64,000 nt of DNA from Octopus vulgaris (GCA_951406725.2 OX597828.1:5518001-5582000); one strand, 5' to 3'; counted from the first letter of the stretch, positions 1,245 to 60,025 are shown. The notes: generated from the sequence alone by a model not told the origin. Numbers and translations: made by a program.

Positions 1245-1672
1245 TATATCAAATAAAATCAAAAACAGAACACAAAGGTTATCGCGGTACACCTGTTTCA
1301 AGCTTCATAAGCGACCTGTTCATTACATCATTGTATAATAGATATAAAAGATGGTTTAAGCTCTCTTCAGCCGCATACATTGTTATTCCAAAGAGTTGCA
1401 TCACGCTGTAAAAAATATGAAAAGTACATGCAGTATTACCCATTATAATAGGTATATCATATCTCCCTGAGAAAGTGTATTTGTAAAATTACCTCACTTT
1501 ATAACTATATAAAGATTCATTGGATTTCGAAAATCTTCGCATACTGTATCACCAGTTATACAGCATCTTTTATATCTATTATACAATGATTTAATGAACA
1601 GGTCGTTTATAAATCTTGAAACACGTGTACCGCGATATCCTCTGTGTTTTACTTTTGATCTTATTTGATATA
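1245..1672. repeat. Imperfect inverted repeat (about 1245-1353 vs 1564-1672) of a hammerhead-bearing element end
   Basis: ATCAAATAAAATCAAAAACAGAACACA...AAAAGATG is the reverse complement of CATCTTTTATATC...GATCTTATTTGATA, with several mismatches. Confidence 0.85.
1284..1374 (-). ncRNA. Minimal type I hammerhead ribozyme motif (Penelope-type)
   Basis: Minus strand GCGG-CTGAAGA-GAGCTT...AAGCTT-GAAAC-AGGT-GTA-CCGC: stem I GCGG/CCGC, stem II GAGCTT/AAGCTT, GUA cleavage triplet. Confidence 0.75.
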
Positions 1673-1832
1673 TTCTCTCTCACCTCTGCCACTATCTGGC
1701 GTGTACAGGTGCTTACATTATCAAGTATTCATTCTAAACTTGCAGTCCCTATATATACATACATACATATATATATATATATATATATATATATATATAT
1801 ATATATATATATATATATATATATATATATAA

Positions 1833-1996
1833 ACGGTGGGCTGCTTCCATTTTTCGTCTACCACATCCACTTACACGGTTTTGGTCAGCCCGAGGTTATA
1901 TTAGAAGACACTTGCCCTAAGTGCCACGTAGTGGGACTGAACCACGAACTATGTGGATGGGAAGCAAGCGTCTTACCATACATTCACGCCTGCGCC
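1833..1996 (-). mobile_element. SINE family A, tRNA-like 5' half
   Basis: Homologous to copies at 37563-37713 and 59418-59583 (GGCGCAGG..TGGTAAG..GGTTCAGTCCCACT with Pol III A/B-box-like motifs). Confidence 0.8.
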
Positions 1997-2409
1997 TACA
2001 TATATATATATATATATATATATATATATATATATATATATATATATATATATATATATATATATATATGTATATATATATATATATATATATATATATA
2101 TATATATATATATATATATATTGGTTGTATACTGTCAATGATCCTGAAACACGGTGTCCCTAGATGCAGTTCCGACGGCCGGGGGTGTTTGTCTCCCCTT
2201 CGTATATGTATATAAGGACACAGGGAAAAATGTGTCGAAGCTGTCAGGAGGCGTTCGATGCCTCCTAGGGCTATACAACGGTGGTGTACCCCCTACTGTC
2301 ACGTTCTTGTTAGATTGACAGTATACAACCATTCTATCGCCCCACCACCGTACATGTCTCTACGAGAGATTTAGAAATTCAATATTTCTTATTTATATAT
2401 TATATTATA

Positions 2410-5400
2410 TTAAATTAGAGATAAAACCATTATAAGGCAAATCAAACAGTGAAAATCATAAGCCAATACATAGAAATAAAATTAATTAAAAATATAATAA
2501 ATATAAAATATAAAATATAAAAATCCAATTAAAATATTTAAATTAAAGTTAAAATTTAAAAAAATATTTTAAATTAATAAATTAAACTTATAAATTTTAA
2601 ATATATATATTTATTATTTATTTATTTTTTTTTTTAAATATCAAAATGTATTAAAAGTTTAATATAAGATAAAGAGTAAAAACACTACGATCGTTTCATG
2701 CCCGTAACCAATTCGAATAACAAAAATAATAATTTAAATTCAATTAATAATTCGAATTATGGTTACTGTCAATCTTCAGGTTAATTGTAATATTTTAATA
2801 AATAATCAGAAATATTTAAACAATATTTTTAAAGAAATAAATAATATAATAAATGTTCTTATAAAAAACTCTATTATCAAACTAGAAACTTAACGATTAT
2901 GATTTTGTCAAAACAACGATTATAATATTAATTTTAATTCTTAAGTATTAATTTTTAAGGTAAGAAACCCACCAATTATCTAATATCAGTAATAGTCAAT
3001 ATCTAATTACATAAATATTTTACAAAAAAATGATTATTCATATAAATAAAATATAAAATTTAAATAATATATAAATTTTCAATGAAAATATATAAATGTA
3101 TATAAATATTATAATTAAGATCTAAAATAATCTCTATAAATAGATATACATGCACATATAATAAAGACATAATAAATTAATTTTTCATATTTAAAGATGA
3201 AATAGCTAATTTCAAGAATACAAATAAACAATCTTAAACGAACGCTGTAGCAAATTAACTATCTTTATATCTCGTTGGCTAAATAATAACTTTCAAAAAT
3301 CTTACATTTAAAATACTTTAAGAAATAATCAATTCGCAGTTATATAGTATCAAATAAATACTATAAATATATTTATCAATGTAACTTTAAAATATATAAG
3401 TTAAAATAATAATTATATAGAAAGTTACGATGATTAGATAAACAACCATATTTACATAAAAAGCAATACTATTATACCATACGACTTATGAAATATTAAA
3501 ATTTAAAATTTAAAGATCTTAAATATAAATAAGTACTTAGCTTACCGAGGTTTTGCGACGCTTTGAAAAGGATCTTTAGTGTTTGAATATATGCCATTTT
3601 AAAGTAGCCGTTCTGTAACAAGATTGCTCTCTTCTTACAAAAGGGTGGAGAAACTAGACATGGATTGATCTCACAGTTGACCCAGAACGATGTTCCAACA
3701 GCACCACCTATCAAATTTCTGAAGTTTCCAAATGCATTCAGTTATTGCCCTGTAGTTAGGGACTAGATACAGGTTTCGCGATTCATGAATACAGAAATTA
3801 GTCGACTACAGTAAATATTACGATCAGAACTTATATATATATATATATATATATATATATATATATATATATATATATATATATATATATATATATATAT
3901 ATATATATATATATATATATATCAATATATGCTTGTATGAACGTGAGTGTTGTATGAGCACCTGCATGTGCGTGTGAGCGTGTGTGTGTTTGTGCATGTG
4001 TGCGTGTGTGCGTGTGTGCATGTGTGTGTCGAAACTCAGAGAAAAATAATTTGACCTTTTAAACAGCTGTAAGTTATTGATGTATTTGTGTATGCTAAAT
4101 CGTCTCGGAAATTTTTCAGCTGTTTGTACAAAACATTGTCGATAGTACCTGTACATATATATTTCTTCTGATGTTCCTAATTAGCAATAGCTAACAGTTT
4201 TGATTTGTTGATATGTGTCCAGTGTCTCCGAGCGAAAATCCTGACAGAATGTATACACGTGCTGTAAAGATAGCTTAAAGAATCAGGTGAAAAACCTAAA
4301 GACAATATGGCGATCACAGACAGAAATGTGATTCATTAAGTATTATTCTACGAAATCTAATTTACTGAGAAATAGCTATTTGTTTAGATCTTTTATTAAT
4401 TGAATAAATCGCTTCTGATAAATTTTGTTTTTATTCCAATCTATTGTCAATTAACTGGTTGAAATGACAACACACACTCAACTTTAGTTATGAAGGGATT
4501 TATTTACCAATTGTATCATTATTCTATGTAGATATTGGCAACGTTATCTTATATCTGGCAATTTGAAACAAGATTACAGAGGACAGTTTTAGTGCCTTTA
4601 GGTTAAGCAATCTCAAAGGGATATTTCTAATAGAAAATCATTAATTCTAATATATGTAACAAGATAAATGATACCACAGATACTTGTCAGAATGACACGA
4701 CTCTGAACTAAATAAAGTATACTTTTGTAGGTTTGAAGAACACTCGGCCACAAAATAGGCATATATTTCTTAAGTTGACAAACATGTTGACAACATACAC
4801 TGGAGTAATAATTTATGAGTGATTCATTCGCCTATGACCTTTCGACAAAATCTAATATTTTATCTAAGCATCAAATTATGTCAGTATCTCATGAATATTT
4901 ATGTTCATGAGAAGGATTTGCCTCGGAGATTTCCCAGTAGAGATAATACTAAAACTTATCGGCAGCTGTATCTTAACGTGTAGGTCATGCATGATAATTT
5001 GTTTAGATAGTGACATATTTGATATTTATGTAACGTATATACATATTCTACCCTTATATGTACCCTTATTTGTCAACGTATTTTTGTCGGCGAAAATATT
5101 ACAAAAGATGATAGGTTGGATTGCACCTGTCCTAGTGTGCGAACGCTTTGAAAAAGAATCTTTAGTGTTTGAATATATGCCATTTTAAAGTAGCCGTTCA
5201 GTAACAGGATTGCTCTCTTCTTACAAAAGGGTGGAGAAACTAGACATGGATTGATCTCACAGTTGACCGAGAACGATGTTCCAACAGCACCACCTATCAA
5301 ATTTCTGAAGTTTCCAAATGCATTCAGTTATTGCCCTGTAGTTAGGGACTAGATACAGGTTTCGCGATTCATGAATACAGAAATTAGTCGACTACAGTAA

Positions 5401-58821: not shown

Positions 58822-58902
58822 CTATGGACGCGCGTTTCGGAATTAGGTTGGAATGAAGAATATAAAATTATACTTTACCAACCGTTTTCCTCTTCAGCAT
58901 AG
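58822..58902 (-). ncRNA. Canonical minimal hammerhead ribozyme
   Basis: CTATG-CTGAAGA-GGAA...TTCC-GAAAC-GCGC-GTC-CATAG. It lies in element 58640-59140, a diverged member of the 23450 family. Confidence 0.85.
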
Positions 58903-59169
58903 GACCCCATCAATAATTAAATATTGAAATATCAAATTCGAAGGTACTGGAATAATTGAACATATCTCTCCACCTAACGGTATCATACAGATAATATTCA
59001 GTGTTAGTACCGCCGAATTCAAAATATGGATGAGGTTCAATTACCCTTCCCTGCTCGTCCTCGTGTGTCTACAAGTAAACTACTACAGAAAAAAATTTGT
59101 AGCTTGTTATCAGGGAGAAATTACTGATAGCATTACTGATAATATATATATTTACTCATTTACTCTTTT

Positions 59170-59583
59170 ACTTGTTTCAGTCATTTGACTGCGGCCATGC
59201 TGGAGCACCGCCTTTTAGTCGAGCAAATCGACCCCGGGACTTATTTTTTGTAACCCCTGTACTTATTCTATCGGTCTCTTTTGCCGAACCGCTAAGTGAC
59301 GGGGACGTAAACACACCAGCACCGGTTGTCAAGCAATGCTAAGGGGACAAACACATACACACAAACATACACACACACACACACACACACATATATATAT
59401 ATATATATATACATATATACGACAGGCTTCTTTCAGTTTCCGTCTACCAAATCCACTCACAAGGCTTTGGTCAGCCCGAGGCTATAGCAGAAGACAATCG
59501 CCTAAGATGCCACGCAGTGGGACTGAACCTGGAACCATGTGGTTGGCAAGCAAGCTACTTACCACACAGCCACTCCTGCGCCT
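59170..59583 (-). mobile_element. SINE family A, full length, young
   Basis: GGCGCAGGAGTGGCTGTGTGGTAAG...GGTTCAGTCCCACTGCGTGGC head, central (TA)/(TG) tract, 3' end GACTGAAACAAGTAAAAGAGTAA. Confidence 0.9.
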
Positions 59584-59970
59584 ATATATATATATATATA
59601 TATATATATATATATATATATATATATATATATATATATATATATATATATATATATATATATATATATATATATATATATATATATATATATATATATA
59701 TATATATATATATATATATATATATATATATATATATATATATATATAATTAATATAGGATAAAAGTTTTTCGGGAAAAAATTTTTATCAATGGCCAGCA
59801 TATCAAAAAATGCCTTTAAGGTAAAATTTATACATAATTTACAAGATAAGGGCAGAAGAAAAATTCTAATACTAAATATGCCGGAACAAATTTTTTTTTT
59901 TTGTCGATAACCATTATAATTTATGCGTCTCGAAAGAAAACGATAGAAATCTCTAAAAAATTCGTTATTA

Positions 59971-60025
59971 CCGTATTGGTTCAATTTCGGGGTTAATTCA
60001 TAAGAAATTTTCCCCTCTTCAGCGG
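59971..60025 (-). ncRNA. Canonical hammerhead ribozyme motif (AUA site)
   Basis: CCG-CTGAAGA-GGGG...CCCC-GAA-ATTG AAC CAAT-A-CGG. Confidence 0.8.

Follow-up and report, generated by a model that had tools for sequence, protein, structure and literature searches.

Hammerhead ribozymes among (TA)n tracts of Octopus vulgaris: ends of Penelope-like elements and protein-free units probably copied by them

What are the hammerhead ribozyme motifs that lie scattered among the (TA)n tracts of the octopus genome, and what moves them? The question is raised by a 64-kb stretch of Octopus vulgaris DNA (OX597828.1:5518001-5582000, analysed at its full length and called the window below) in a genome of 2.80 Gb and 227 contigs. 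The window has 34% GC and 83 (TA)n tracts of at least six units, and a sequence-only reading of it had listed about 20 minimal hammerheads in diverse short elements, which it took for a non-autonomous retrozyme system driven by a Penelope reverse transcriptase (RT). Our analysis makes it quite probable that the motifs sit close to where Penelope-like elements (PLEs) inserted in (TA)n have their 3' ends, that one inverted pair belongs to the truncated end of a protein-coding PLE, and that at least five are protein-free units of 360-600 nt likely copied by PLEs.

The listed sites comprise 19 positions, with 20867/21058 entered as two. A strict descriptor (CUGANGA, stem II, GAAAY and NUH, and a stem I of at least 4 bp) was passed by 4 of the 19, all on the minus strand (1283-1375, 52702-52833, 58822-58902 and 59968-60028), and a stem I cut-off of 3 bp added the inverted pair 20867-20946(-)/21058-21137(+), giving six motifs; in 40 shuffles of the window the mean number of hits was 0.075 and 0.15, respectively. 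A relaxed descriptor, its features taken from PMC4209133 and PMC7229834 or from the motifs of relatives, admitted U4C and U3-A8 cores and tolerated a basal mismatch or bulge in stem II. This descriptor was loosened twice post hoc, after inspection of the data, with the shuffles repeated at each loosening, and recovered 11 motifs: nine of the 19 listed sites, including 15858-15924, 22629-22695 and 47503-47584 (each with CCGAAGA), and two new ones at 18083-18125(-) and 41046-41080(+). Twenty shuffles together yielded two hits, so the window holds more such motifs than shuffled sequence does. Six of the 11 have the canonical core and five have U4C or U3-A8.

The other ten listed sites are decayed through breaks in the core or stems (for example, GAAT at 41251 and 42984, GAGA at 54423 and CUGAAUA at 19229). 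The count of about 20 therefore stands for nine sites and fails for ten, and the word "minimal" fits only 18083 and 41046, as the core halves lie 27-105 nt apart in most window motifs. Among fetched genomic loci, intact relatives were found for seven of the ten decayed sites: 19229 (2 of 7 loci), 23635 (3 of 6), 41251 (1 of 11), 41750 (1 of 1), 52069 (1 of 1), 54423 (5 of 11, and 9 of 15 in a second set) and 58510 (4 of 8). None of the fetched loci held an intact relative of 2683, 18567 or 42984, and look-alikes of 2683 and 42984 are present among the genome pattern matches listed. An Rfam e-value scan of the window was uninformative: the best 150 of 375 matches were microsatellite-driven hits to microRNA and similar families and included no hammerhead family.

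We examined conservation of the fold with a core-only pattern that demanded no pairing; in 1.29 Mb of fetched DNA it found 172 hits, which fell into 24 clusters. The underlying loci had mostly been fetched for hammerhead families, and 24 is not a census. Stem I had at least four contiguous pairs in 17 of the 24 cluster representatives, compared with 4.0% in a cross-family control, and the pairing representatives used 15 different stem I 4-mers. Loop III was a palindromic tetramer in 18 of the 24. Both the covariation of stem I and the frequent palindromes noticed in the window were thus borne out by a test independent of pairing. At least 17 families that differ in sequence have retained the core, stem I pairing and stem III palindromes, which implies that the fold is under selection. 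Minimum-free-energy folds of monomers formed stems I and II and mostly lacked the three-way junction, as expected because stem III is weak, and we did not use them as support. The motifs represent many families of type I hammerheads and are predicted to be self-cleaving.

The pair at 20867/21058 consists of the short-end arm of a truncated autonomous PLE (family C; 20808-21005, minus strand, hammerhead 20867-20946) and the inverted long-end, tailed arm of the same insertion (21006-21359, plus strand, hammerhead 21058-21137), which ends in (TA)n. Relatives of these arms at 99% identity continue into an open reading frame (ORF), and the window arms are 93% identical to the 3' end of L216 (G000:C1:119514000-119522500), a head-to-tail array with a period of 3,624 nt, 99.87% identity and a stop-free frame of 899 aa. 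An RT query of the genome returned 7,940 candidates, many with 899-aa frames, and related hammerheads lie 3' of the ORF in most of eleven more divergent members of the family C group. Family C has a terminal repeat with hammerhead, tandem and inverted insertions and a tail, and no poly-A. Rather than a retrozyme, the 20867/21058 pair is what remains of the 3' end of a young autonomous PLE, truncated and inverted.

The family C protein is probably an RT, as judged from visible motifs, an Atlas feature score of 0.98 for its N-terminal 500 aa against RT-like clusters (HTH_animal and RVT_1 on a minority to a majority of members) and a weak alignment with the RT of L061 (E 0.002). This RT is of the YRDD type, which we take to be Nematis-like, with no clear Cys linker, and it is presumably followed by a C-terminal endonuclease, assigned by eye. 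Long, low-complexity, Asn/Ser-rich insertions stand between the RT thumb and the endonuclease. Family C ranks with the youngest families and forms a multi-unit 3.6-kb tandem in L216.

L061 carries ORF1 and a 781-aa RVT_1/GIY-YIG ORF between direct repeats of 99.3% identity and ends in (TA)n; a CxxxxCxxC linker precedes its C-terminal GIY-YIG, making it a putative Neptune-type PLE whose clade name is given by the linker alone. A PF01541 profile search of the genome gave 6,136 candidates, of which 150 were scored, and in 11 of 25 GIY-YIG loci a hammerhead lay between the end of the ORF and the first (TA)n (10 U3-A8 and 1 A3-U8). These results show that autonomous PLEs of two groups, with intact ORFs and terminal-repeat hammerheads, are present in the genome. 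The separate ORF1 of L061 (359 aa, L061:906-2244) lies upstream of the RT-endonuclease ORF, and several near-intact copies exist. The window itself contains a remnant of a family C-like PLE RT thumb at 55234-55401(+) (34% over 56 aa, E 7e-4) that has no hammerhead element joined to it, and a weak match at 53417-53731(+) to the N-terminal part of an L061-type PLE ORF (30%, E 6e-5).

Five other window families are protein-free. Family A (58630-59120, minus strand) is an ORF-less 595-nt unit with an intact hammerhead at 58822-58902; its tail-body junction has 32 exact genomic matches, and the end of the previous unit's body lies upstream in 11 of 25 junction loci, three of which (L087-L089) share flanks and represent one event. 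Family D (59751-60127, minus strand) is an ORF-less 468-nt unit with an intact hammerhead at 59968-60028 and a short fold-back at 60094-60127, and it forms a trimer in L185. Family G (17852-18164, minus strand), which the sequence-only reading had missed, is a 362-nt unit, called ORF-less from that length, with a compact U3-A8 hammerhead at 18083-18125 and a tandem plus inverted copy in L106. Family I (41504-42273, minus strand) is an ORF-less 1.55-mer with a period of 498, a direct repeat of 98.5% identity and a decayed hammerhead at 41750-41813, of which L067 holds an intact relative. Family J (23448-24408, minus strand) is an ORF-less 1.2-mer (24125-23448, period about 560) with a decayed hammerhead at 23635-23696 and an inverted arm at 24194-24408; its ends are 75-80% similar to family A, and an inverted pair of its 3'-end fragments without a hammerhead lies at 27396-27753.

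The longest stop-free frames in families A, D, I and J are 65-84 aa. All five families have the form by which retrozymes are recognized, an ORF-less head-to-tail unit of a few hundred nucleotides carrying a single type I hammerhead. Arrays with two or more complete hammerheads in succession occur in family D (L185) and family G (L106), and were not seen in the 25 junction loci of family A or in the window copies of families I and J. The claim of a non-autonomous system was therefore upheld for five families and failed for the 20867/21058 pair, which is the end of an autonomous element, and the broader proposal of many families of Penelope-linked type I hammerheads was supported. An ORF-less-looking 534-nt hammerhead unit elsewhere, L182 (G000:C1:5010500-5014000), forms a 3.5-mer with 100% identity.

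How far the window represents the genome was evaluated with exact patterns and with a sample. The pattern CTGAHGA-N30-60-GAAAC-NNNN-GTM had 31,815 exact genomic matches, as against 771 for the reversed control, and a minimal pattern that does not overlap with it had 14,159, as against 0 for its control, jointly about 45,000 motifs genome-wide. Forty 10-kb stretches at arbitrary round coordinates (L098-L137, 400 kb) contained 28 motifs, with 1, 0, 0 and 2 in four shuffles and no motif in 23 of the 40 stretches, which extrapolates to about 190,000 per genome, or about 1 per 15 kb (Poisson interval 125,000-280,000, the true interval being widened by pairs and tandems). PLE protein similarity was present in 2 of these stretches (L109 and L137) and a hammerhead in 17. 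The earlier figure of one motif per 3 kb did not hold, since it includes decayed copies; intact motifs occur at 1 per 5.8 kb in the window, about 2.5-fold over the genome mean, and the 20 kb flanking the window contained none. The window is thus an ordinary, somewhat enriched sample of a genome-wide repeat class. Density within the sample appears uneven, with 1 hit in the nine C22-C30 stretches and 27 in the other 31, although these numbers are small.

Autonomous or not, five of six mapped families have two separated classes of 3' ends past the cleavage site: +55-70 and +225 in family C, +190 and +290 in A, +45 and +150 in B, +145 and +220 in D, and +170 and +350-370 in E; the ends of family F lie at +40 and +50. 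Inverted arms and (TA)n ends are likewise common to the ORF-less units and the autonomous PLEs, and families A and D have the two fixed 3' ends as well. Of the 11 window motifs, 10 have a (TA)n tract no more than 250 nt downstream and 4 have one upstream (random positions, 25%); in the genome sample the corresponding figures are 17 and 5 of 28 (random, 14%). The earlier proposal that hammerheads lie near (TA)n with the sense strand pointing toward the tract was thus sustained as to orientation, whereas nearness alone carries little weight because such tracts are common in the window. Hammerhead elements of different families were seen stacked in the (TA)n that ends an earlier PLE insertion (L047, L057, L043, L044, L219, L220 and L226), and such stacking would explain local clusters like the one in the window. 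In family C, 7 of 30 forward arms continue upstream past the upstream cleavage site. We considered the cleavage site as a hard 5' boundary, which family A hinted at (24 of 25 upstream partial units start past the site), and rejected it, as the pattern fits ordinary truncation and copies of families C and D cross the site.

These observations are consistent with a model in which a read-through or tandem transcript would be cut at successive hammerheads, paired as dimers via their palindromic stem III, and the unit-length RNA would be ligated into a circle. Dimeric PLE hammerheads were reportedly the subject of a study by Lunse et al. in 2017. The GIY-YIG endonuclease would then nick (TA)n, as PMC11167929 and the fixed ends suggest, and the RT would begin copying at an internal position of the RNA, for which there are two fixed choices 40-370 nt beyond the cleavage site; short-end and tailed arms, often back to back, would result. 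By running through the cleavage site, sometimes beyond one unit, the RT would generate partial tandems and multimers, and most copies would be 5'-truncated single hammerheads left to neutral decay. Two internal start sites of reverse transcription are known in the Anolis PLE PAc and match the two 3'-end classes here (PMC11167929), and a religated circle was proposed as template in PMC4209133. Because the 3' ends map downstream of the cleavage site, and copying went on upstream across it, the template was either uncut there or a religated circle, and we consider the chances of a circle and of an uncut linear multimer to be evenly balanced. The identical multimers L182 and L216 lean towards one molecule copied round, although the data do not firmly separate circle from linear.

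Several points weigh against this reading. U4C, which impairs hammerhead catalysis, occurs in 4 of the 11 window motifs. The 5' ends of arms show no accumulation at the cleavage site (of 33 that lie within 100 nt of it, 5 lie within 20 nt), so the ribozyme leaves no visible footprint on insertions. Two fragments of the family C protein matched neither an RT nor a GIY-YIG family in Pfam, and blastn of the two autonomous references L216 and L061 against the ORF-less elements of the window found nothing. Local DNA duplication is another possible source of a tandem, as in L275, and the class assigned in the window covers families A, C, D, G, I and J, with about nine others that may belong to either class. 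In published systems, insertion in vitro did not require hammerhead cleavage, and unprocessed RNA was the main substrate (PMC11167929), PLE hammerheads had low activity (PMC4209133) and cleavage was seen in 1 of 9 dimers (10.64898/2026.07.22.740005).

The alternative that fares best against these data holds that the same elements are copied from an uncut linear multimer, with hammerheads that are mostly passengers, or protein-assisted and dispensable; it overlaps with our preferred explanation except at the steps of transcript cutting and circle formation, and we regard it as a serious contender, if clearly the less probable one. The scattered 5' ends, the use of unprocessed RNA by PAc and the frequency of U4C in family H all favor it. 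The selection on the fold implied by its conservation across families argues against it, as do the identical multimers L182 and L216, which fit rolling on one molecule, although a young genomic tandem would look alike.

It appears very unlikely that every motif is a solo terminal repeat left by a truncated autonomous PLE and that independent non-autonomous families do not exist. PMC4209133 reads most single motifs in this way, the reading is true for family C, and families B and E, which extend more than 1 kb upstream, could represent long 3' untranslated regions. However, in families A, D, G, I and J the tail joins the body without an ORF, at many unlinked loci for A and D, and tblastn with PLE proteins in ORF-less loci matched only separate neighboring remnants, so that the explanation is already contradicted for these five families. 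We hold it even less likely that the ORF-less units were moved by long interspersed nuclear elements (LINEs) or amplified as satellite DNA, with (TA)n incidental: LINEs and short interspersed nuclear elements (SINEs) are abundant in the genome and in L275 the flanks were duplicated locally along with the element, but the copies are dispersed and have in common with autonomous family C their inverted arms, their (TA)n ends and the two fixed 3' ends, and no poly-A tail was seen in the loci inspected. The least credible is the earlier view that all motifs derive from non-autonomous retrozyme families, which the five ORF-less families and the rarity of PLE protein similarity relative to hammerheads in the sample would favor and which may still hold for most families, but which family C, with 99%-identical relatives that reach the ORF, refutes as a blanket statement.

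Among the remaining window elements, the family B insertion (1244-1778, minus strand) has a forward arm at 1558-1244 that ends in (TA)n and carries the intact hammerhead 1283-1375, and an inverted arm at 1564-1778; coding similarity was not detected over at least 1.3 kb walked upstream. Likewise, family E (52346-53089, minus strand), with an arm at 52891-52346, an intact long-stem-II hammerhead at 52702-52833 and an inverted piece at 52995-53089, gave no coding similarity over more than 1 kb upstream. Two copies of family M, both on the minus strand, lie at 15823-15982 (hammerhead 15858-15924, with a CCGAAGA core, bulged stem II and NUU triplet) and at 22603-22762 (hammerhead 22629-22695), and a decayed family M relative at 58500-58618(+). 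Family K (19092-19466, plus strand) has a decayed hammerhead from 19229 and intact relatives in L284 and L286, and family N (41213-41310, minus strand) a decayed hammerhead (GAAT) with an intact relative in L040. Family F (54312-54554, plus strand) has a decayed hammerhead (GAGA), with 9 of 15 fetched relatives intact; its tandem at C9 (L275) was rejected as a repeat unit, being a local DNA duplication that includes flanks, and an RT remnant beside L272 was considered as its partner, a link that could not be made.

The short family H element (40975-41191, plus strand) holds the truly minimal hammerhead 41046-41080, which was absent from the earlier list and belongs to the pattern with 14,159 exact matches. 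This family is very abundant, with U4C in most copies listed, and may be annotated as SINE. An element end at 47335-47584(-) carries the hammerhead 47503-47584 (U4C), 168 nt from (TA)n, and an old inverted pair at 51919-52359, about 68% similar to family I, has decayed hammerheads at 52123(-) and 52162(+). Other decayed hammerheads lie at 2683-2785(-), with a broken stem I and similarly degenerate relatives in fetched loci, at 18566-18657(+), with a canonical core, 6-bp stem I, broken stem II and no counterpart in the fetched loci, and at 42984-43046(-), with GAAT. Unrelated repeats include a Tc1/mariner remnant at 7772-8242(-) (DDE_3, E 2.8e-15), sequences at 7008-7457(+) and 28330-28773(+) that are mariner-like by eye only, and, at 53723-54157(-), what is presumably an RTE-type LINE 3' end (no Pfam hit).

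The repeat class is real, genome-wide and of known type, and is notable for its number, its diversity and the presence of enzymes and parasites side by side. We tentatively suggest, as a claim slightly more likely wrong than right, that this genome may carry the highest ribozyme load per base reported in an animal, with some 10^5 hammerheads in dozens of families, most of them in protein-free RNA circles that would compete for at least two still-active Penelope enzymes, and many hidden among "unclassified SINE" or "unknown" repeats. If so, young intact enzymes beside young parasites would make the circle-template model of Penelope and retrozyme copying directly testable. The questions addressed are the role of the hammerhead in PLEs and the enzyme that moves animal retrozymes, for which the genome offers two groups of intact autonomous elements, many ORF-less families that insert in a common way and a natural collection of one ribozyme fold in tens of thousands of variants. 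Should even a fraction of them cleave, hammerheads every 15 kb or so would also act on long pre-mRNAs as a permanent hazard or as regulators.

The sequence-only reading knew of no description of such density and diversity in this lineage. In the open-access literature we found no cephalopod description of these motifs, although the supplements of PMC4209133, PMC7229834, PMC8557442 and 10.64898/2026.07.22.740005 may list some, and an octopus repeat annotation with 190 Penelope-like families (6.83% of the genome) and 893 recently active unclassified SINE families does not contain the word "ribozyme" in the passages and the one supplement searched (PMC13282606). To that extent the claim stands. 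Large numbers of heterogeneous, mostly single motifs and of pairs are known for PLEs (PMC4209133), and a link between retrozymes and Penelope has been argued (10.64898/2026.07.22.740005).

Cervera and de la Pena 2014 (PMC4209133) described PLE hammerheads as massively abundant, heterogeneous, mostly single and in opposite-strand pairs, at about 2,000-9,000 per genome. The octopus motifs resemble these metazoan hammerheads in being type I, in many heterogeneous families, mostly single copies, with a U3-A8 variant, and also in their opposite-strand pairs 100-700 bp apart, an extra base between 9 and 10.1, palindromic helix III and the small number found in full PLEs. They differ in abundance (at least 45,000 by exact patterns and about 190,000 by sampling, as against 2,000-9,000, with different descriptors) and in the 40-107 nt between core halves of most families, compared with a helix II of 7-8 bp. 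Retrozymes contribute more than 6,000 motifs in coral, about 5,000 in mussel and about 120,000 in axolotl (Cervera and de la Pena 2020, PMC7229834), and animal retrozymes have been argued to be non-autonomous PLE derivatives in a study of 35 genomes with no mollusc by its group list (Li, Clavereau and Pollet 2026, 10.64898/2026.07.22.740005); both papers propose an origin of retrozymes in PLE terminal repeats and a dependence on PLE enzymes. The ORF-less tandem units of a few hundred nucleotides with one type I hammerhead each are like these metazoan non-long-terminal-repeat retrozymes. Unlike the long arrays of retrozymes, however, they occur here mostly as dispersed monomers and as 1.2-1.6-mers with inverted arms and (TA)n ends, and, unlike the Xenopus retrozyme families, they had no sequence link to an autonomous partner in comparison with two references.

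The insertion anatomy and (TA)n bias are those of the endonuclease-containing (EN+) PLEs Neptune, Nematis, Hydra and Naiad (Craig et al. 2021, PMC8557442), whose 5' truncation, partial tandems, adjacent inverted copy, optional tail and (TA)n targets recur here, with tails of about 75-200 nt rather than the 30-40 of those clades. L061 is like Neptune and Nematis of the same study in its C-terminal GIY-YIG after a CxxxxCxxC linker. PAc, the Poseidon PLE of Anolis (Frangieh et al. 2024, PMC11167929), has start sites shown biochemically, whereas ours are deduced from end positions, and it shares with the octopus elements two start sites that explain the tail, AT-rich targets and a hammerhead in the terminal repeat.

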